From: Treponemataceae bacterium
Lineage (GTDB): Bacteria; Spirochaetota; Spirochaetia; Treponematales; Rectinemataceae
DNA length: 64,000 bases
Assembly (NCBI GenBank): GCA_963677895.2
Contig: CAXXGJ010000025.1
Span: forward strand, 64,001 to 128,000
Direction: 5' to 3'
The notes under the pieces were generated by a model that worked only from the letters and a program-made list of their open reading frames with translations, was not told where the DNA came from and ran no database searches. A program made the position numbers and the translations under genes. Every line of letters begins with the position of its first letter. The first letter of the stretch is position 1. Shown piece after piece: positions 5,401-15,126 of the stretch.

Positions 5401-5754
5401 GGTGATATAGACGATATCGGGCCGCCGTCCATCGGCCGGCAGGGAAAGGCTTCTCCATTCGTTTTCGCCATAAGGATAGAAGCCGAAGTAATCGGATTTT
5501 TCATTATAGAGCCGTCTGGAGCCCAGCTTCGCGATTTTCTCGTTTTTCAGCACCCAGAAAAATCCGGCGTGTTCACGGTAATCTGGATATGGAACGGTCT
5601 TGTCCACAGCCCATATGTTGAGTTCGCGCGATGGGGCGACCTGCCACAAGATGAAAGGAGACAGAACGAGGAGGACCATTCCGGCCGTGATCGCGACGAG
5701 GAGGATGCCCAGGATCATCATCGTGGAACGTTGACCGATTCCAGAACTCTTCAT
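2488..5754 (-). CDS. Membrane-anchored two-domain protein: uncharacterised N-terminal domain fused to a GH-A-clan (GH2-like TIM barrel) glycoside hydrolase
   Basis: N-terminal TM helix. C-terminal half has RGVNMG, NTVRIY, VGRELE (candidate acid/base Glu), YHIYPNYPDF, VAEFG (candidate nucleophile Glu) and FEWMDEW. ATGA overlap with the upstream GT2 gene. Confidence 0.7.
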   Translation of the reverse strand: MKSSGIGQRSTMMILGILLVAITAGMVLLVLSPFILWQVAPSRELNIWAVDKTVPYPDYREHAGFFWVLKNEKIAKLGSRRLYNEKSDYFGFYPYGENEWRSLSLPADGRRPDIVYITDTYGVYKDDYMQKKLAGEISSKLYGALTSEDIQTIRKNLGAGNTFMAEFNSAASPTNLKDRLTLGRLLGIQWKGWIGKYFEDLTAGKEVPAWVISNYAAQTGKQWSFFGRGYILISDEDHVEVLTEKDDLGKDGLKFSFRDPWAETLKSKKPISYRSWFEWTVPDSGSEIVADYNLDLTASGKAKLDSLGLPSAFPAILLYKNPQYSGWYFAGDFADLQAISTPYGMKGISWLKKLLIDDSVDSNAYFFWKAYVPLIRSILRDAEKAKAARTLIPNEQGEPKVDVRAFGKSFQLRDKDGSWKDFFVRGVNMGFAEPGMYFTNFPEDVGTYARWLEGIADMNANTVRIYTLPPPEFYKALFIHNTEHPDRTLYLLQEIWPEENPANGDYLAPEYRESFLKEIDYGIDAVYGRANVPDRKGRAWGIYTADVSKWLLGWLVGRELESEEVMETDAHNRNVAYTGKYVSAGPEATPTEVWLAESLDEVASIEAARYGRLHPVSIVSWPTLDPKEHDSEWDPATGKKNKGNDRASVTIDHFEITPAMTAGLFGAYHIYPNYPDFMNNETAYGSYKDEEGLLRYGGYLREFMESHGRYPALVAEFGLANGSGIAHFAPDGLHHGGLGETAAGEGILRMMDAIRKEGYAGGVIFEWMDEWVKKTWTTETLMIPYDRHVLWHNAVDPGQNYGLMANEVLTPERPDVAYKGNGIVDSMELSADASYLNITIKLKRAPDFAAEEILVGLDTLGRDLGQMLWPIGKMKTNSGLEFVLRLYAADKADLLVIPTYNAAMSRFATVRLSDGQFERISMLVNGAARTKDGRSIAEKRFDASALRRGPFDEAGNLWNIQGSTISLRLPWTYINVTDPSSRQVLQDSRTGYFNPERDALKTIATDGFLVDAVAWDKKQGKTTGGIELNPSYPYFWKVWEEAPPYREKLKKSYYIVRDAWAAEAAVERPVEAAVEWPVEAAVERPVRP
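2497..2568. repeat. 24-bp tandem repeat x3 encoding (EAAVE[R/W]PV)3
   Basis: gaccggccgctccacagcagcctc / gacaggccactccacagcagcctc / gacaggccgctccacagcggcttc at the extreme 3' end of the 1088-aa gene. Confidence 0.95.
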
Positions 5755-8700
5755 TTCTTGTCCTTGTCAGGCTGATTCCCGGTAGGCCCCTGGGCCGTGC
5801 CGGATGAGGAAAAGCCCTTTCTTTCCATCTTGCCCCAACCTTTCGGCTTTTTCATGGCGCTCAGGAAACCGAACACGCGCCACATCGAAAACAGCTGCCT
5901 GGGACCGAAATTCTCGATGAGGGCGATGGCGAGCATCTTCAGAGTATCCTTATACGAGAAATAATAGATCTGCCGCTCAGCGATCAGCACTGAAGCCATG
6001 GAAATGAGGATCCCCATGAAGACGGTCGAGAGGAAAAGAAGAATGGCGAGCTTGGCGCTTATCAAACCGAGAAGAGCCGCCAAGAAGACCATGAAATAGC
6101 CTTGAATCTCAAATAGCGGGCCGATCATCTCGAAAATAAGAAAATACGACATCCCGATCATGCCCATTTTTCCATAGCCGGGATTGAAAATCAGCTTTCT
6201 GTGGAAATACAGTATATCGATGAGCCCTCTATGCCATCTGTCCCTCTGCCGCTTCAGGACATCTATGCTTTCCGGAACCTCCGTCCAGCAGTTGGCGTTA
6301 TAGGCGTAGCTTATCCTGTATTTCTGCTTTTTTTCCCGCATATGCCTGGCCAGCCTCACGACGAGCTCCATGTCTTCTCCCACGGTATCCTTCCCGTACC
6401 TTTCGTTGCTGGTAAGATAGCCGCCTACGCTGACCACCCGCTCCTTCCGGAAAAGACCGAAGGCGCCGGAGATAATGAGAAGCGTATTGATCTGCGCCCA
6501 GCCGAGCCTGCCGCACATGAATGCCCTCAGATATTCGATGGTCTGCAGTTTGGCCAGGTTGTTGGCCGGAAGCGCTATGTGCGTGAGCTTTCCGCGGTCC
6601 ACGCCGCATCCGTTTATGGGGAACACGTTGCCGCCCATCGCGGGCGTCTCCACCCCGTAATCGAGGGTCATGGCGGCGACCTTCAGCAATGAATCGGGCT
6701 CGAGAAGCGAATCGGCGTCTATGCCGCAAAAATATTCCTTGGAAGCGATGTTGATGCCGGCGTTGAGCGAATCGGCTTTCCCGCCGTTGTCCTTGTCCAC
6801 GACGACGAGACGCGGGTAAAGAGGATTCAAATAGATTCCCCTCACCGAAGCCGTCTTCAGCCGCTGTGTGTAATAATAATCCGTCCGCTTGAGACCGTAA
6901 TGGGAAATGAGGCTGTTCAGCGTGCCGTCGCGAGATCCGTCGTTGACGACGACGAGCTCGTAGTCCGGATACTTGAGATTGAGCAGGGAACTCGTGCTCT
7001 CTATGATCGTCTTCTCTTCGTTGAAAGCCGGGGCGATGATGGAGACCGAAGGAAGTATGCGGGGCTTGAAAAGGAAGGACATCGTCTTGAGATTCCAGAG
7101 CCGGGTGGAAGATTTCACCTTCACGGTCGAGAGCAGGAGGAGAACGATATAGATCGCGTTGATCGTCATCGAATACCAGGCAAAGTTATAGTTTACGTCC
7201 ACGACGTAGGTTTTCAGCTGCACGAGCGGCGGGATGGAACCTATCTGGCTGCCATGGCTTAAAAAGTAAATAGCGGGAAAAAACAGAAGCGATCCGATCA
7301 ATATCATATAGAGCCGACGCACCATTTTCCAGTCCCGTTTTTCTTCGCGCTTTTTGACGGGAACCGTGATTCTCCGGAAACCGCATTTCTCGATGAGGCG
7401 ATCGGGAAGATAGAGTCCGCATTCCGTCCTCAGCCTTTCGCTTCCATCGGCTTCTTCGCGTATGATGGCGATTACGGCAGCCTCCAGAGCCTCATCCTTG
7501 TTCAGTTTCAAAAACTCGATGATCTCCGAAACCTTCCCGAGCCGGATGACCTCGCTTATGAGCCGGGCCGACTTTTCCTTCTCCTTCCCCGAGAGTTTGG
7601 TTATGAAATATTCGATCTTTCCAGCCAGGATTTCCGCCAGGCTCTGGACGATGTTCTCGTCGGTCGTTTCCTCGAAAGCTTCGACGACCGATGGAATGAG
7701 CCGCGGATGCTCCATGAGAATCCGCGAGAGGCCAATTTTCGCCGGTATCGCCGTCTGCTCATCTCCGAGATAGCGCAGCAATGTATCGATATTATCCTGG
7801 CTGTTTCCGTCGCCGAGGGAGCGCACCGCGATGGCGCGGATATCCTTGTCTTCATGTTCGAGGAACTCCGTGGAATTCAATACATCGCCATAGAATTTTT
7901 CGATGCACTCGGCCGCTTTCAGCATGAGCCTGTGATGGTTCTCCACGGGGTGTTGGCTCGTGACAAGGAGCTTGAAATGCCTGCAGTAAAAATCCGGCGA
8001 GACGCTGCCCTTGTATTTGCATTGTCTTCGCTGATCGTCGGCGATCGTCTGTCCATGCCTGCAGAAGGCGCAGCATTTTTCGGGACAGCCATGCACCAAA
8101 GCCGAAAGCCGGGCCATCTCGGCCTGCCCCCCGGAGAGCATCGCGACAAGATACTCCTTAAGGTCTTCAGAAATATAGGTGATGGATATATCCAGAAAGA
8201 GCTCGAGTATCTCGCTGTCTTCGCGCCAGAAATATCCGCGCAGATAATCTGAAGCCTCCGGACCGAAGGAAGCGATGAGGAGATTCACTTTATCGCGATA
8301 CCAGCGATGCGCGCCGATCAGGCTCTCTACGAGTACATTCAGGGACCGGGGATCCCCGATTTCGGCTAACGCGTTCGCTATGAACAGCTTGACGGGAAAT
8401 TCCTTTTCGACAAGAAGCGCTTTTTCGAGTGTCGCGCGGGCATCGTCGCTCCTGATCAAGGAAAGTCCCAGAGAGGCTTCCATCCGCTCGTAGCGGCTTT
8501 GATACCTGATTCTTCTCTTGAGGATGGACTCCAGCTTTTCCGACCTGGCCAGGCTGAGAATCCTGAGATGCTCCTTTTCGGGAAGCTGTATGGACTGCTT
8601 CAGCCGCAGGTAATTATCGAAAAGCCTGCTCACTCTTTTCTTGTCCCACTTGGTGCCTGTCTCGAAAAGATGGTTGAGTTGGGCGATTTCCCTTTGTCGC

Positions 8701-8816
8701 CGCTCGTCAGAAAGCGCAAGCCTGGACTTGTTGATCAGCGTCGTCAAAATGATGAAAATATCGAACCAAAGGAAAAAGATAACGGCGAGCAGTATGAATT
8801 CTATCTCGAGATTCAT
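5751..8816 (-). CDS. HEAT-repeat + processive family 2 glycosyltransferase (PgaC/IcaA/cellulose-synthase-like) fusion
   Basis: N-terminal TM and HEAT-like helices (ANALAEIGDPRSL; RAIAVRSLG). GT2 motifs PAFNEE, NDGSRD, GGKADSLNAG, DADS, GEDME and QRDRW (QxxRW), flanked by TM helices. Confidence 0.88.
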   Translation of the reverse strand: MNLEIEFILLAVIFFLWFDIFIILTTLINKSRLALSDERRQREIAQLNHLFETGTKWDKKRVSRLFDNYLRLKQSIQLPEKEHLRILSLARSEKLESILKRRIRYQSRYERMEASLGLSLIRSDDARATLEKALLVEKEFPVKLFIANALAEIGDPRSLNVLVESLIGAHRWYRDKVNLLIASFGPEASDYLRGYFWREDSEILELFLDISITYISEDLKEYLVAMLSGGQAEMARLSALVHGCPEKCCAFCRHGQTIADDQRRQCKYKGSVSPDFYCRHFKLLVTSQHPVENHHRLMLKAAECIEKFYGDVLNSTEFLEHEDKDIRAIAVRSLGDGNSQDNIDTLLRYLGDEQTAIPAKIGLSRILMEHPRLIPSVVEAFEETTDENIVQSLAEILAGKIEYFITKLSGKEKEKSARLISEVIRLGKVSEIIEFLKLNKDEALEAAVIAIIREEADGSERLRTECGLYLPDRLIEKCGFRRITVPVKKREEKRDWKMVRRLYMILIGSLLFFPAIYFLSHGSQIGSIPPLVQLKTYVVDVNYNFAWYSMTINAIYIVLLLLSTVKVKSSTRLWNLKTMSFLFKPRILPSVSIIAPAFNEEKTIIESTSSLLNLKYPDYELVVVNDGSRDGTLNSLISHYGLKRTDYYYTQRLKTASVRGIYLNPLYPRLVVVDKDNGGKADSLNAGINIASKEYFCGIDADSLLEPDSLLKVAAMTLDYGVETPAMGGNVFPINGCGVDRGKLTHIALPANNLAKLQTIEYLRAFMCGRLGWAQINTLLIISGAFGLFRKERVVSVGGYLTSNERYGKDTVGEDMELVVRLARHMREKKQKYRISYAYNANCWTEVPESIDVLKRQRDRWHRGLIDILYFHRKLIFNPGYGKMGMIGMSYFLIFEMIGPLFEIQGYFMVFLAALLGLISAKLAILLFLSTVFMGILISMASVLIAERQIYYFSYKDTLKMLAIALIENFGPRQLFSMWRVFGFLSAMKKPKGWGKMERKGFSSSGTAQGPTGNQPDKDKK

Positions 8817-10846
8817 CTCCCCGCCCCTGCCGATGTCATATTACGGACAATCCCCAGAAGTTCGGGGAGAAGATAAGGTTTTTTCAGATAATGGTCGATT
8901 CCCAATTTATACGCTCTGGAAACGGATTTTTCATCCTTTCGATGGGACATCAGTATGAAAGGAATATCCTTGGTTCCCGATTTCCTCGAAAGGGCTTCCT
9001 TGAGCATGAGGCCGTCGATCTTGGGAACCATGAGTTCCGAGATGATGAGATCGTAGCCTTCCTCGCTTATTTTTTTCAGGGCTTCGGCGCCGTCTTCGGC
9101 TACGGCGACGGAATAATCGGCATTCTCGAGAAATGTCCTGATGACGCCCGCGTTTACGGCATCGTCGTCGATGATCAAAATTTTCGCCTTGGATTCGACC
9201 TCCGTCCCGACCTCGGACGACGAACATATGGTATCGCCGCCGCGCCGCCGCGCCCAACGCAAACGCCTCAAGCCGATCTCGTAGAGCGAAGCCCCGGCCT
9301 CGGCGGAATCCATGATCGACGACCTGATTTCGGCTATCGCGACGAGGCCGATGGATATGGTGACCGGCTCTATGAAGGACCTGGAGATCTCGACATTCTT
9401 CCTAATTTGCTCGCAGAGATCATTCGCTTCATGGAAGACGATGCGCGGCATCCAGATCGCGAAGGTCGCCCCATGCAGGCGGAAAACAGGCTGGCTCGCT
9501 GTCTTGTGTTCGAGCATGATCCTGGTAACGCCCTTGAGGACAGCCTCCACTTCGCGCGGGCCGTATTGATATTCGATTGTGGAAATAGTGTCATCGATGC
9601 CGATAACGGCCAGGACATCGTCTTCCATCCCTTCCGCGTTCAGCGAAAGCGAGGCTTGCTCGTCGATGAAATTTCGGAAGAAAGCTTCGTTGTATAGTCC
9701 GGTGGTGGTGTCCCGCAGCTGGGATTCGTTCGCTTGGCCGTAAGCCTGCATGAGCTGTTCGTTCAGCTGCCTGAGTCTGGCGACTTCCTGCCCAAGCTCT
9801 TCGAAATTCCGCTCCGATTCCTTCAGGATGGATGCGTATATCCCGGGACGCTTTATGCCGAATTCCTCGCAGAGTTTGGCCACGAAAGGTTCCAGCAGGG
9901 TCAGAGCGGAATGGCCCTGCACCAGATAAATAGTGTCGGCGAGCCTGTTCCACAGGTCCAAGCCCATCGGCGCTGCGTTGACGATGGCGCCGGTCTCAGG
10001 GTCCAATTCAAGCCCAAGCTTGAGGGCAACCGTATCGGCAAACTTCCGGCCATAAACGGCGGAAAAACGCGCCAAAAGCTGCTTGGACGGCTCAAGGGAC
10101 TCACTGGAATCGCCCAGGTTTTTTTTGGGGAAACCCAGCAAAGTGCCGCATTCCAGGGTTCTCAGCGCGTCGATATACGTCTTGATGTCGCGATTGATGA
10201 TCGATCCATGCTGGGGAAGAATGGCGGCGAGTTCGAGACAGGAGAAGATTTCCATTACCGGTCCCAATATTTCGTGGGAGGGCATGTAATGTTCATGGAA
10301 GGTTTTCATCCCATCCAAATAGTCTTTCCCCGCATAGAGCGACCACTCGGGCGTAAAAGCGCCGAAAAGGTCGCTGGAAAGAAGTAATTTAGCCTGTCTA
10401 TCGTAGGTCGCGATCGCGCCGGGAAAATGAAGATAAGCCGTCGGTATGAAGCGCAGCGCTCTCCCCGAGGCAAGGGTGAGAAGATACCCATGCTCATCCA
10501 CCAAGTAGACGGGCGATTGGATCCCATAGAAACGAACAAGCGTCCAGGTTCTCCAGTGCGTTACGATGGTGAAGCGCATTCCGAGCGCCTCTAGGTGAGG
10601 CACCGCCGAAGCGAGATCGGGATCCTGATGGGACAGCACTACATATTTGACTTTTTCGAGCGGTATTATGGAGGCGATATTGGCCGCCACCTCCCCGACA
10701 TCGAGGACCGATCCAGGGTCGAACAGGACGGCTTCTTCTCCCTCGACGAGCAAATAGGGATTGCACTGAAGACTATCGGTTGCGGCCCGGGCGCCGACCC
10801 AGTAATAGCCTGACCCAAGGGATTCGCCCCCGCTTCCTGACGCCAT
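8813..10846 (-). CDS. ODP-like metallo-beta-lactamase di-iron sensor + degenerate GGDEF + pseudo-receiver protein
   Basis: SHQDPDL, LHFPG, SSDLFG, FHEHYMPS and PQHG ligand motifs. DTTTGLYN opens the GGDEF-like domain, whose signature is replaced by HGATF. REC domain has IIDDD and KKP, but Glu at the phospho-acceptor position (IISELMVP). CAGGAG RBS before ATG 10846. Confidence 0.82.
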   Translation of the reverse strand: MASGSGGESLGSGYYWVGARAATDSLQCNPYLLVEGEEAVLFDPGSVLDVGEVAANIASIIPLEKVKYVVLSHQDPDLASAVPHLEALGMRFTIVTHWRTWTLVRFYGIQSPVYLVDEHGYLLTLASGRALRFIPTAYLHFPGAIATYDRQAKLLLSSDLFGAFTPEWSLYAGKDYLDGMKTFHEHYMPSHEILGPVMEIFSCLELAAILPQHGSIINRDIKTYIDALRTLECGTLLGFPKKNLGDSSESLEPSKQLLARFSAVYGRKFADTVALKLGLELDPETGAIVNAAPMGLDLWNRLADTIYLVQGHSALTLLEPFVAKLCEEFGIKRPGIYASILKESERNFEELGQEVARLRQLNEQLMQAYGQANESQLRDTTTGLYNEAFFRNFIDEQASLSLNAEGMEDDVLAVIGIDDTISTIEYQYGPREVEAVLKGVTRIMLEHKTASQPVFRLHGATFAIWMPRIVFHEANDLCEQIRKNVEISRSFIEPVTISIGLVAIAEIRSSIMDSAEAGASLYEIGLRRLRWARRRGGDTICSSSEVGTEVESKAKILIIDDDAVNAGVIRTFLENADYSVAVAEDGAEALKKISEEGYDLIISELMVPKIDGLMLKEALSRKSGTKDIPFILMSHRKDEKSVSRAYKLGIDHYLKKPYLLPELLGIVRNMTSAGAGR

Positions 10847-10994
10847 CGCGTACTCCTGCCCTACTGATGTTATAGTTTGGCTCAATTCACGGCATAACAC
10901 CGCTATCCCGTGATAATACAGCGTTCAACTTCAATAATAATGCATAATGATACGCTTAGTAAGGCTTTTTACTGTTTGTCCCTGCATATTTCAT

Positions 10995-11023
10995 TTGACA
11001 GCAAAAAAGGGCAAGGGTATGCT
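10995..11023 (+). promoter_or_regulatory. Sigma70-type promoter of cstA
   Basis: TTGACA (10995-11000), 17-bp spacer, TATGCT (11018-11023); AGGAGG RBS at 11041-11046. Confidence 0.75.
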
Positions 11024-11051: not shown

Positions 11052-12752
11052 ATGAGTACTATCATTGCCTTGGCCGCGATCGCAATCTATGTCGTTTTCT
11101 ACTTCACCTACGGCAAAAAGATCCGCGACAACGTGCTCAAGAGCGAAAAAGCCCCCGAGGCCCCATCGAAGAGGCTATCGGATGGCGTCGACTACGTTCC
11201 GACGTCCAAGTACGTCCTGTTCGGCCATCACTTCGCCTCGATAGCCGGAGCGGGACCGATCACCGGCCCGGCTATGGCCGTGGCTTGGGGCTGGCTCCCC
11301 GGCTTGCTGTGGATCTGGTTCGGCAACATCTTCCTTGGCGCCATCCACGACTACCTCTCGCTCGTGGCCTCCGTCCGTTATGACGGTCGCTCGATGCAGT
11401 TCGTAGCCCAGGATGTGATCGGGAAGAAAGCCGGCAAGACCTTCAGCTGGTTCATTCTCTTCCTCACCATCCTCGTCGTGGCGGCTTTCGGCGACATCGT
11501 CGCGGGACAGTTCGCCGCTGACGGACGCGTATTCTTCTCCTTCGTCTTCTTCTGCGTAGCGGCCTTCGTCGCCGGCTTCGCCATGTACAGATCCAAGCTG
11601 GGCTTGGGAAAGGGCACACTGATCGGCCTCGCCCTCATCATCGTGGCCTTTTTCTGCGGAAACCTGCTCCCCGTAAAGTGGGCTAAGGATGTCTACTTTC
11701 TCATCATCTTCGTCTACATCGTCCTCGCGTCGACCTTGCCGGTCAACCTGCTTCTGCAGCCGCGCGACTACCTCTCCTCTTTCTTCCTCTATTTCGGCCT
11801 CATCGTCGGCGGTTACGCCGCTATCTCGAGCGGCAAAGCCCTGGACGCCATCCCGGCCTTCACGACCTTCAGCGCCAAGCTGATCGGCCCCGCCGGCAAC
11901 CTCCAGCCCTCGCCCTTCTGGCCCTGCGTGCCGCTCATCATAGCCTGCGGCGCCCTTTCTGGATTCCATTCTCTCGTGGCGGCCGGAACCTCTTCCAAGC
12001 AGCTTAGAGAGGAAAAAGACGCTCTCTTTGTCGGTTATGGCGCCATGCTCGTAGAAGGCTTCCTCGCCACCCTCGTCCTGATTTCTATCGCCGGATGGGG
12101 CGTCCTCGCGATGGGCGACAAGGTGATGGCCACGCCTGCCCTTGGCCGCTTCGTCAATTCCTTCGCCAAGATGGTCAGCATGCAGATTCCCTTCATGGGC
12201 GAAAGCTTCATGAGACTTTTCGCCGCGGTCTGGGTATCCACCTTCGCACTCACGACTCTCGACACGACGAACCGCCTCGGCCGCTACATCATGCAGGAAA
12301 TGGCCGAACCCTTGAAGGACAAGAGCCCAGTAATCTACGGCATCTTCCACAACAAGTGGGTAGCCTCCATACTCATCGCCTTCATCGGCCTCTTCCTCGC
12401 GCGCTCCGGCGGCTACACGGTCATATGGCCGGCATTCTCCGGCGCCAACCAGCTTCTGGCCTCGGTCGCCATGCTCACTGTCGCCATCTGGGTCAACAAG
12501 AAGCTCAACGCGAAGTTCGTCCTCGCGACGGTGCTTCCCGCCCTGCTGCTCTGGGTGACCGTCGTCTGCGCCCTTGTCTGGTATGAAATCGTGATCATCC
12601 CCGTATTCTTCATCGATATGGCCAAAACCATGAACGTCATCACCGGCACTGTGGTCGGCGTCATGAACCTTTTGATGATCATCCTCTCCTTCGTGATGCT
12701 GTTCGCGTTCAGGAAACAGTGGAACGCGAAAAACGCGATGGAAAAAGCCTGA
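11052..12752 (+). CDS. cstA: Carbon starvation protein A family transporter (peptide/pyruvate)
   Basis: DGVDYVPTSKYVLFGHHFASIAGAGPI, LLQPRDY, IACGALSGFHSLV, TTLDT and WPAFSGANQLLA motifs; many TM segments. Confidence 0.95.
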   Translation: MSTIIALAAIAIYVVFYFTYGKKIRDNVLKSEKAPEAPSKRLSDGVDYVPTSKYVLFGHHFASIAGAGPITGPAMAVAWGWLPGLLWIWFGNIFLGAIHDYLSLVASVRYDGRSMQFVAQDVIGKKAGKTFSWFILFLTILVVAAFGDIVAGQFAADGRVFFSFVFFCVAAFVAGFAMYRSKLGLGKGTLIGLALIIVAFFCGNLLPVKWAKDVYFLIIFVYIVLASTLPVNLLLQPRDYLSSFFLYFGLIVGGYAAISSGKALDAIPAFTTFSAKLIGPAGNLQPSPFWPCVPLIIACGALSGFHSLVAAGTSSKQLREEKDALFVGYGAMLVEGFLATLVLISIAGWGVLAMGDKVMATPALGRFVNSFAKMVSMQIPFMGESFMRLFAAVWVSTFALTTLDTTNRLGRYIMQEMAEPLKDKSPVIYGIFHNKWVASILIAFIGLFLARSGGYTVIWPAFSGANQLLASVAMLTVAIWVNKKLNAKFVLATVLPALLLWVTVVCALVWYEIVIIPVFFIDMAKTMNVITGTVVGVMNLLMIILSFVMLFAFRKQWNAKNAMEKA

Positions 12753-12830
12753 CCGATTAATTCGGGTCTGGCGGCGCGTTCATGACGCCTCGCGTCGAAG
12801 ACGCGCCGCCGGATAAGTCAGCCAAAGTCC

Positions 12831-12862
12831 AGCCGGACGGCATCGAGCCGTCCGGCTTTTTT
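12831..12862 (+). terminator. Intrinsic terminator after cstA
   Basis: agccggacggc-atcga-gccgtccggct stem-loop followed by a T run. Confidence 0.8.
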
Positions 12863-12886
12863 ACGGATACGGAGATTTGCGCAAGC

Positions 12887-12972: not shown

Positions 12973-13254
12973 ATGCCTCAAAGTATCGGACATATCATCA
13001 AATCGGCAATCCATATCGCCACCCAGATAAACCGAGAAAGGGCAACCGGCCTTATCGAATTCGAAGAAAAGGAACTCGAGAATATTTTCGCGCTCCTTAT
13101 CCTAGGCGGTTTCGCGGGGCTTCCCTCCCCCCCCTCCCCGATAGCCATCGAACTGCTTCCCTATATGGAAAAAGAGCTCATAATGCTGCTATCGCGAACC
13201 GATCTGGCACAGGATCCCATCGGGGTTCTCGCCGGCATGTTCGAGATGGGCTAA
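12973..13254 (+). CDS. Small CstA/ArsA-associated protein (cory-CC-star-like)
   Basis: 93 aa with ELENIFALLILGGFAGLPSP...IELLPY, resembling (from memory) small proteins encoded between cstA and arsA-like genes; AGGGAG RBS. Confidence 0.65.
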   Translation: MPQSIGHIIKSAIHIATQINRERATGLIEFEEKELENIFALLILGGFAGLPSPPSPIAIELLPYMEKELIMLLSRTDLAQDPIGVLAGMFEMG

Positions 13255-13267
13255 GGTAGGAGCCATC

Positions 13268-14215
13268 ATGAACAGCACGGCTTTTTTCCTGGGCAAGGGC
13301 GGAGTAGGCAAGACCACCCTTTCGAGCGCCTTTGCCCTCACGCTCGCCAGACGAGGCGCTAAAGTGCTCATCGCCTCGCTCGACCCGGCGCACAATCTGG
13401 GCGACGCCCTCGACATAAGCCTGAACGGCAACGTCAAGACGGTCGAGCCTAACTTGGACGCCCTCGAGGTCGATCTCGCCTATTGGGTGGACAAATACCT
13501 CGACGACAGCCGCAAACAGCTGAAAGCCAATTATTCCTACAATGTCACGCTGAACCTGGACTCTTTCTTCAACATCCTGAAGTATTCGCCCGGCACTGAG
13601 GAATACGCCGTGCTTTGGGCGATTGAGGATATCCACTGCAGGCTTGGCCCTCTCTACGACATCGTCGTCTTCGATACGCCGCCCACGGCCCTCTCCCTGC
13701 GCTTTCTCTCCCTGCCCACGATTTCGGGGCTCTGGGTCAAGGAACTGAGCAAGCTGAGAGAAAAAATCCTCGCGAAACGGCAGACGATCACCCGCCTCAA
13801 TCCCGAATCCCCCGTCGCCGCGAGCTGCGTCGACAAGGATGACGACAAGGTATACGGACAGCTCAACACTATCGGGGCAAGACTCCGAAAACTGGAGCAC
13901 CTCTTCGCCAAGGAAAGTTTCCTCAGCGTCATCGTTAACCCGGACCAGCTCTCGGTCGATGAAGCCTTGCGGATCCAGGATGAACTGACCAAGTTGGGTA
14001 TTCCGCTATCGGCGGTCTGCGTCAACAAGCAGGGCGTGTCCGATATGATATGGGAGCAGAATCCCTCCCTTGCCCGATATCCGCAGTTCATCTACGATTT
14101 TTCGCGCGGAGGCATTTCGACGAGGGAGAACCTCCTCACTATCGGCGCCGGACCTATCGCGGATCACTTCCTGAAAACCGTTCAAAATCCAACAACCGAG
14201 AGGAAGAAAAAGTAA
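13268..14215 (+). CDS. Single-domain ArsA/Get3 (TRC40) family ATPase
   Basis: Deviant Walker A GKGGVGKTT, switch I DPAHNL, switch II DTPPT; 315 aa equals one ATPase domain. Confidence 0.92.
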   Translation: MNSTAFFLGKGGVGKTTLSSAFALTLARRGAKVLIASLDPAHNLGDALDISLNGNVKTVEPNLDALEVDLAYWVDKYLDDSRKQLKANYSYNVTLNLDSFFNILKYSPGTEEYAVLWAIEDIHCRLGPLYDIVVFDTPPTALSLRFLSLPTISGLWVKELSKLREKILAKRQTITRLNPESPVAASCVDKDDDKVYGQLNTIGARLRKLEHLFAKESFLSVIVNPDQLSVDEALRIQDELTKLGIPLSAVCVNKQGVSDMIWEQNPSLARYPQFIYDFSRGGISTRENLLTIGAGPIADHFLKTVQNPTTERKKK

Positions 14216-14841
14216 TGGAAACGACATATTTGATTCCGCTTCTGCTTCTGGGCATCGCCGGCAGCACACAGTATTTCCTGGGTTCCAAGAAAAACAGATG
14301 GCTCGGGAAGCAAATGTCCATCCAGGCCGAAAACGTCTTCAAACCCAGGGATACGGAGTACGTCAATATCGGGGGCGTGATAGGCCACAACTTCATATAC
14401 AAGCTCCGCGATCCCTGGAAAGAAGCCAAGGGATCGTTCATCTTCATCCCCAGACATTCTCTCCTCTACGTTCCCTTTTCTTACCTCATCGGCAGCCGCG
14501 ACCGTTTCCTCTTCAACCTTTTCACGGACAAGAAACTGGCGGGAGAAGGCCATATCGTGGAGAAGAGCCATCTCAGGCGCACGAAGATCGACGGCATAGC
14601 GCAGATGGAACGCGAGGAAATTGAATGCGGAGGCAAGACCTTCGTTCTCCTCTGGCGAGATGCCGCCATGCTTGCCGCCTTGAAAAGGACCCTTGAGGCC
14701 ATGCCCGATCCCGCGACGCTCGCGCATTTCTGCTGTTACGACGACAATAAAACTTTTTTCCTGTATCTGAAGCCCCGCAAGGGAGCGATCGAGGCGAATC
14801 TTAAAAAATTCCTGGAACTCTGCCCCGAGTATTTCCGATAA
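14215..14841 (+). CDS. Membrane-anchored hypothetical protein (possible CCDC47/DUF1682-like)
   Basis: TAATG overlap with the ATPase stop; N-terminal TM followed by YFLGSKKNRWL and FIPRHSLLY motifs. The family resemblance is judged by eye only. Confidence 0.7.
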   Translation: METTYLIPLLLLGIAGSTQYFLGSKKNRWLGKQMSIQAENVFKPRDTEYVNIGGVIGHNFIYKLRDPWKEAKGSFIFIPRHSLLYVPFSYLIGSRDRFLFNLFTDKKLAGEGHIVEKSHLRRTKIDGIAQMEREEIECGGKTFVLLWRDAAMLAALKRTLEAMPDPATLAHFCCYDDNKTFFLYLKPRKGAIEANLKKFLELCPEYFR

Positions 14842-14853
14842 AAGGAGGCCGCG

Positions 14854-15126
14854 ATGGATCCCGAGATCAGAAAGAGAGTGGACGCGGTTCTCGCGAGGGT
14901 AAAAGAGCCGCAGTCCGACCTGCCCATCGTCGATTTAGGGCTGGTGTACAATGTCCGCTACAGTGAAAAGGAAAAAAGCATAGAACTGACACTCGCCATT
15001 GGGTATGCGGCGGGACACTGTCCAGCTTGCGTGGCTATTAATGGGGTCGTGGGCGCGGGGATAGCGCGCCGAGCCCTAGAGGAATTCCAGAAAGAATTCC
15101 CGGGATTTTCCATCGTAGTCGACTAA
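14854..15126 (+). CDS. DUF59 / FeS-assembly-P (metal-sulfur cluster biosynthesis) domain protein
   Basis: LARVKEPQSDLPIVDLGLVYNV motif followed by CPAC; AGGAGG RBS. Confidence 0.8.
   Translation: MDPEIRKRVDAVLARVKEPQSDLPIVDLGLVYNVRYSEKEKSIELTLAIGYAAGHCPACVAINGVVGAGIARRALEEFQKEFPGFSIVVD

Follow-up and report, generated by a model that had tools for sequence, protein, structure and literature searches.

CstY of the cstA-cstX-arsA-cstY cluster: a small prokaryotic membrane protein predicted to share the transmembrane and globular core of CCDC47

The locus and its genes

The window analyzed here is a 64,000-nucleotide stretch of a contig from a Treponemataceae bacterium, and the five genes of interest lie on its forward strand. 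The first, cstA (11052..12752), encodes a CstA-family multi-pass transporter of 566 aa when read from the likely ATG, in a frame that is open from 10947. A promoter-like sequence, TTGACA-17-TATGCT (10/12), is found just upstream of this likely start at 11052, at positions 10995-11023. Further upstream, on the reverse strand (5751-10900), is a two-gene unit in which the gene for a 695-aa protein overlaps that for a 1021-aa protein. By eye, the former was named as having flavodiiron/metallo-beta-lactamase, GGDEF and receiver parts and the latter as a HEAT-repeat and family-2 glycosyltransferase protein. Two strong RNA hairpins follow cstA on the forward strand (12766..12863), of which the second is a terminator-like stem with a run of T (12831-12857). 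The fold strength of this region corresponds to a z of -7.7, and none of 200 shuffled sequences folded as well. The gap between cstA and cstX is 220 bp here and a few to tens of bases in most other loci. In this genome cstA and the cstX-arsA-cstY-DUF59 genes may be separable transcripts.

The next gene is cstX (12973..13254). Its 93-aa product is helical, with a single segment that is weakly hydrophobic and hinged by Gly/Pro, and shows a weak resemblance to cory-CC-star (NF041419, E 4e-4, under the cut-off). Then comes arsA (13268..14215), whose 315-aa product is an ATPase of the GET3/ArsA family (PF02374). Like the GET3/TRC40/ArsA ATPases, this protein has the P-loop and switch motifs and passes the subfamily cut-off of TIGR00345 (159.1 bits vs 135), and archaeal proteins of the Get3/ArsA type are among its closest relatives in the PDB (3ug6, E 1.6e-29). 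It differs from them in consisting of a single domain, in falling far below the arsenical-pump equivalog cut-offs (76 vs 650 bits) and in having no CxxC, a motif that is absent from 41 of 42 sequences of this ATPase and that eukaryotic Get3 uses as a zinc site. At the end of the cluster a DUF59/MIP18-like protein of 90 aa is encoded (14854..15126; PF01883, 26.4 bits, over the cut-off). The protein has a CxxC; in loci L034-L108 this motif is kept by some homologs, and many others are without any cysteine.

Between arsA and the DUF59 gene lies cstY (14215..14841, forward strand). Its ATG (14215-14217) overlaps the TAA of arsA (14213-14215) by one base and is preceded by an RBS-like purine-rich stretch (14198-14206), so that the whole junction occupies 14198..14217. 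An alternative start at 14050, from which the reading frame is open, was rejected because full-length homologs begin at the ATG at 14215. The product is a 208-aa protein with a single hydrophobic segment, located at its N-terminus (approximately residues 3-22, encoded by 14221..14280) and followed by basic residues; in the structural model presented below the helix runs on to residue 42. Both this architecture and two sequence motifs had been pointed out in the original prediction and are confirmed, the motifs at residues 20-33 and 75-102. They contain the near-invariant residues G23, N27, P79, R80, P87 and D96 of the 139 aligned family sequences. The hydrophobicity of the segment is marginal in this protein (KD19 peak 1.39) and averages 1.8 over 42 family members. 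A net charge of at least +2 follows the segment in 129 of the 139 members, and from this positive-inside pattern an N-out topology with a cytoplasmic C-terminus is predicted. Beyond the conserved P187 there remain a median of 23 and a maximum of 54 residues in these 139 proteins, which had been pre-selected at 185-245 aa, and the claim that a long C-terminal coiled coil is lacking thus holds for this set. The gene is single-copy in its own genome. No Pfam or NCBIfam family was found for the window protein, nor any match at E<=0.001 in viral structures, and there was none in plasmids. Assembled contigs from DNA sequencing runs match the stretch with 0 differing letters, and it is therefore not an assembly artefact. 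No RNA run was listed as containing it, and the one run marked as possible RNA is probably DNA.

Clusters of cstA, cstX, arsA and cstY were described by Castillo and Saier in 2010 (PMC2963123); in the accessible text of that paper CstY is reported from five archaea only, and without a fold, a family or a test. We infer that the window protein is this CstY because its size, topology, operon and taxa match. Both have a single TMS and about 210 aa, both are encoded in the same type of operon, with cstA, a cstX of about 90 aa and a single-domain ArsA homologue, and a Pyrococcus abyssi homolog is 24% identical to the window protein over 203 aa (E 5e-23, pairwise). The name is therefore older than this work; the original prediction had described the protein as a bacterial one resembling CCDC47. 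Our survey extends the 2010 account in two respects. Besides Thermococcales (with Thermococcus and Pyrococcus matches) and Thermoproteota, the named members come from Spirochaetota, TA06/WOR-3, Desulfonauticus and Halocella, and CstY also occurs in Clostridia-labelled records. In addition, the DUF59 gene, which is usually present, is absent from the cluster description in the accessible text of PMC2963123.

Likeness of CstY to CCDC47

An AlphaFold2 model of CstY, built from 139 prokaryotic sequences and no templates, has a pLDDT of 97.4 and a pTM of 0.90. A Foldseek search with this model returned only three matches at E<=0.001, all from multipass- or SND3-translocon entries: 7tm3_4 (E 4.1e-10, TMq 0.70), 9i78_4 (E 4.1e-7) and 6w6l_7 (E 3.4e-5). 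The next was TtfA, at 2e-3. A comparison by VIA-align, which spanned 48,161 representative chains, aligned 207 of the 208 residues with 7tut_4 (Z 17.9, rmsd 3.0, chain range 135-395) and 204 with 9i78_4 (Z 16.1, rmsd 3.2, chain range 76-368). TtfA (6t84) followed with 147 aligned residues (Z 10.6, rmsd 4.1), and the first unrelated fold after it reached Z 6.1. The translocon chains are taken to be CCDC47 on account of the entry titles, the agreement of Pfam and the fit of the 9i78_4 range to the CCDC47 residues 76-370 that were docked as one rigid body in that translocon structure (PMC12572126). The resemblance to CCDC47, first noticed by eye, is thus supported by matches that cover the TM and globular parts together, and no unrelated fold matched better. 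On the strength of the model, CstY is predicted to fold like the TM and globular core of CCDC47, with a match that runs over its whole length.

The sequence evidence is weaker. PF07946, the CCDC47 family, is the only Pfam family that is matched repeatedly by CstY proteins: 51 of the 139 members match it at E<=1 (best 2.8e-6), as compared with 5 for the next family, and it is also matched by 13 of 41 in a second CstY set. When 119 members were scanned singly, leaving out 20 close spirochaete sequences, 14 matched at E<=0.003; nine of these matches reach beyond the TM and one lies wholly within the globular part. The control was a small set of 18 unrelated ORFs whose N-terminus is hydrophobic, some of them probably not genes; none matched PF07946. 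After removal of the TM/GxxxN part (the first 27 positions), two of 41 CstY members still matched (E 0.008 and 0.057). The predicted Pfam similarity is seen in part of the family but not at the strength of the Pfam cut-off nor in the window protein itself: the best member scores 27.1 bits against a gathering score of 27.7 and the window protein gives no match to PF07946 at E<=10. A search of its genome with PF07946 likewise gave no match at E<=1. By sequence, no CCDC47 chain was found in the PDB at E<=10 with CstY, with one further member or with three family profiles, including profile A10, which is enriched in Pfam-matching members. The register of the structural alignment is borne out by collinear Pfam matches, for example those of P0166 (residues 6-107 to model positions 7-125) and P0184 (69-145 to 78-157). 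In the language-model Atlas, which provides leads only, the CCDC47 cluster is the nearest named family to CstY (0.78), TtfA scores 0.76 and a Heimdallarchaeota-dominated cluster 0.93.

Taken as strong structural evidence and weak but concordant sequence evidence, these data make common descent of CstY and CCDC47 very likely. The contrary view, that of convergence on a widespread type of alpha/beta sheet preceded by a TM helix, might appeal to the identity of only 11-13% in the structural alignments, to the weak Pfam matches of the soluble part alone and to the type III secretion chaperones that reach Z 5-7 against part of the fold, but it is very improbable in the face of a Z of 17.9 over 207 of 208 residues, far over background, of Pfam matches collinear with the structural register and of the Atlas lead.

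Several parts of CCDC47 have no counterpart in CstY. In CCDC47 (PF07946; 7TM3, 7TUT, 9I78, 6W6L) a TM is followed by the same globular fold that makes up the whole of CstY, and a cytosolic orientation like that of CCDC47 is predicted for CstY. CstY is without the luminal N-terminal region and without the C-terminal latch, a coiled coil that in CCDC47 passes between the exit tunnel and Sec61 (PMC7505659); it ends where the CCDC47 globular domain ends, and its aligned core is shorter by about 50 residues (208 aa vs the chain range 135-395). Asterix was not found either, PF03669 being above its cut-off in none of five cstY genomes, with one match at E 0.28. CstX as a stand-in for Asterix is not supported, since it has one weakly hydrophobic segment and its low-confidence model (pTM 0.49) gave generic helix matches only (best Z 5.9). 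Finally, CstY is patchy and operon-bound rather than general. With no counterpart of the latch, no Asterix above the cut-off and an uninformative CstX fold, CstY falls outside the present definition of the PAT complex. The proposal of a prokaryotic relative of an ER multipass-translocon factor is thus upheld for the TM and globular fold but not for the latch coiled coil and Asterix.

Distribution of CstY and conservation of the cluster

The closest named relatives of the window protein are from Rectinemataceae spirochaetes (78%). A search without a length limit gave 177 representatives at E<=0.001, of which the best 150 are all <=266 aa. The set used for alignment (A1) was derived from 227 proteins, of which 194 have 185-245 aa; 141 were left after clustering at 68% and 139 were aligned. 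The distribution is patchy even among close kin, with cstY in 16 of 41 relatives, and a search of the phylum around a TA06 genome found it in 2 of 61 genomes. In 201 genomes of the spirochaete phylum, cstY was found in 14 (intact in 13), cstX in 11 and cstA in 109. All 13 genomes with an intact cstY possess cstA, compared with 109 of 201 overall, whereas only 13 of the 109 cstA genomes carry an intact cstY; CstA therefore does not generally need CstY. The remaining copy is split into two fragments (G192:C68:69-262) in a genome without a cstA match and is probably decaying. One spirochaete CstY groups with those of Thermococcales (96/96, in a tree whose 29 rows are restricted to named or labelled members), which hints at lateral transfer.

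The cluster cstA-cstX-arsA-(DUF59)-cstY is conserved in bacteria and archaea. Metagenome loci were found by patterns derived from 12 sequences and are rich in Thermococcales-like members; the following counts refer to the best 80 of 157 confirmed loci. Among these 80, all 50 with at least 3.3 kb upstream contain cstA, cstX and arsA, and 35 of the 50 contain the DUF59 gene as a fifth member, before or after cstY. When CstY is grouped at 50% identity, the 69 four-gene loci make up 17 clusters. Tandem cstX paralogs were seen in L037, L052, L055, L056, L066 and L071, and in L052, L055, L056 and L066 the first copy looks degenerate.

A different arrangement was found in six of the 13 spirochaete genomes with an intact cstY. 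In these there was no match to cstX, and matches to the ArsA profile were no longer than the P-loop. In four of the six, cstA is still a near neighbor of cstY, in divergent orientation; in the other two it is not. These genomes represent two lineages in the 29-row tree and are drafts, 60-96% complete, so that the occurrence of cstY without arsA is suggestive rather than statistical. In loci L023-L026 (genomes G113, G022, G155 and G162) cstA is divergent from cstY and there is no cstX or arsA; in L024-L026 a similar ORF of about 105-117 aa, without a Pfam family, lies between cstY and cstA, upstream of cstA. In another genome, in which no cstY was found, two adjacent ArsA-type genes (G108:C30:1888-3840) are found by cstA and a weak cstX match.

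Possible roles of CstY

Among the roles considered, we favor, with roughly even confidence, that of a dedicated but optional accessory subunit of CstA. CstY would help to assemble, stabilize or regulate the CstA transporter of its own cluster. With its N-terminus out, its globular domain would lie on the cytoplasmic face of the membrane, and it may physically contact CstA as its fold-relative TtfA contacts MmpL3. ArsA and CstX would form the seemingly tighter unit, with CstY in a side role beside this pair. Most simply, the fold of CCDC47, TtfA and CstY might then be regarded as a platform, anchored in the membrane, for docking on multi-pass membrane proteins; CCDC47 would dock at the translocon with the aid of additions that CstY does not have. 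The presence of cstA in all 50 long loci and in all 13 genomes with an intact cstY is in keeping with an accessory role, as is its nearness to cstY in four of the six genomes without cstX and full-length arsA. Several observations count against it: CstY distances follow those of ArsA more than those of CstA, most cstA genomes have no cstY, cstY is far from cstA in the sister genomes G160 and G111, and in the present genome a terminator-like hairpin lies between cstA and the genes that follow it. A complex prediction for CstA, CstX and CstY (partner CstY, 41-row alignments) scored 0.00, which is no answer either way.

TtfA (MSMEG_0736/Rv0383c; 6T84) is also bacterial, with a single N-terminal TM and a cytoplasmic domain of related fold. 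A part of 205 aa at its N-terminus, in which the TM is contained, binds MmpL3 and is required for transport (PMC6593404). It is thus accessory to one multi-pass transporter, as we propose for CstY. On the other hand, its partner is an RND transporter, MmpL3, and TtfA is essential in mycobacteria (PMC6593404). It is structurally further from CstY than is CCDC47 (Z 10.6), no sequence match between the two was seen and no TtfA family is among the Pfam matches of CstY members. If TtfA and CstY do share a fold, as the model suggests, a relationship between TtfA and CCDC47 would be implied.

The main alternative, which we consider doubtful, gives CstY the role of membrane partner to the Get3-like ATPase. 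Together with ArsA and CstX it would then make up a small pathway of the GET type, by which hydrophobic segments, either of CstX or of CstA, are delivered to or inserted into the membrane. In the window arsA adjoins cstY with the one-base overlap described above, and the ATPase is related to Get3 by TIGR00345 and by its archaeal PDB relatives. The translational coupling that had been predicted is thus apparent here but is not the rule: within the best 80 of 157 loci, arsA is in the cluster in 70 but directly upstream of cstY in only 26, the DUF59 gene intervening in 49 and the remaining 5 having a contig edge or no gene. Similarly, the expected Get3-like neighbor lacks a full-length form in the six of 13 genomes discussed above, and four genomes without cstY have full-length ArsA together with a cstX match, which is strong in two of them and weak in two. 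Partial correlations of pairwise distances over 41 loci, which are confounded by adjacency and shared descent, show that CstY tracks ArsA best (r 0.58, vs 0.29 for CstA), but CstX follows ArsA more tightly still (0.69). The cluster also showed no gene for a multi-TM protein of insertase type other than CstA, which argues against an insertion pathway.

It is improbable that CstY regulates CstA by sensing a ligand or a metal and puts its CCDC47-like fold to a use unrelated to membrane-protein handling. The polar residues R80, D96, E111, H113 and H171, each conserved in 80-99% of 139 members, could form a site, and the DUF59 protein often found in the cluster is of the Fe-S-assembly type. However, the conserved residues may be structural, and the cysteines of the DUF59 protein are lost in many loci, just as the CxxC is missing from the ATPase. 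The least probable of these roles is that of a genuine PAT-complex scaffold in prokaryotes, associated with the ribosome or SecY and acting on multi-pass membrane proteins in general. The predicted fold does match CCDC47 over its whole length, and in CCDC47 the globular domain makes ribosome contacts of its own, at eL6 and rRNA H25 (PMC7505659). However, CstY has no counterpart of the coiled coil wedged between Sec61 and the exit tunnel, the occurrence among kin and in the phylum is too patchy for a housekeeping factor and cstY goes with a single transporter operon rather than with genes for translation or sec functions.

Two papers state, in the text accessible to us, that prokaryotes lack PAT components; one of them, a 2026 review, describes the PAT complex as without obvious bacterial homologues (PMC13261788). 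A stand-alone bacterial and archaeal CCDC47 core qualifies this view. The cluster and the name CstY have been known since 2010, but none of the accessible texts assigns this fold to the protein or relates it to CCDC47 and TtfA. More specifically, among the texts and listings covered we found no paper that connects CstY or any prokaryotic protein with CCDC47, and none among the matches listed treats TtfA and CCDC47 together. For CCDC47 with archaea, the titles and abstract beginnings among the matches listed name no prokaryotic homologue, and there were no matches for CCDC47 with Asgard; catalogues of Asgard proteins may already list CCDC47 relatives. For CstY/CstX the 2010 paper is the only relevant one among the matches listed, while searches on DUF1682/PF07946 gave plant studies and those on Get3 with carbon starvation gave unrelated work.

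CstY isolates the CCDC47-type TM and globular domain in a small protein of thermophilic archaea, and thermophilic archaea with CstY are genetically tractable. One fold would also join CstY with the essential mycobacterial TtfA, so that a shared role could be addressed in both together. A bolder idea, which we put forward tentatively and think rather unlikely, is that CstY, TtfA and CCDC47 form one ancient family of single-pass chaperone-scaffolds serving multi-pass membrane proteins, that the cluster is a self-contained prokaryotic biogenesis module and that CCDC47 derives from a tail-less prokaryotic protein. If this were true, the Get3-like ATPase and the mini-CCDC47 of the cstA-cstX-arsA-DUF59-cstY cluster would build one transporter, and CCDC47 would have arisen, plausibly through Asgard archaea in view of the Heimdallarchaeota cluster in the Atlas, by gaining the ribosome latch and Asterix.

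Lastly, in G160 and G111 cstY lies beside genes that by eye resemble mcsA, mcsB and clpC. In L021 (6165-6788) and L022 (5998-6639) it is directly upstream of such mcsA-mcsB-clpC-like genes, with a long-type cstA elsewhere. A link of these cstY copies to protein quality control is possible.
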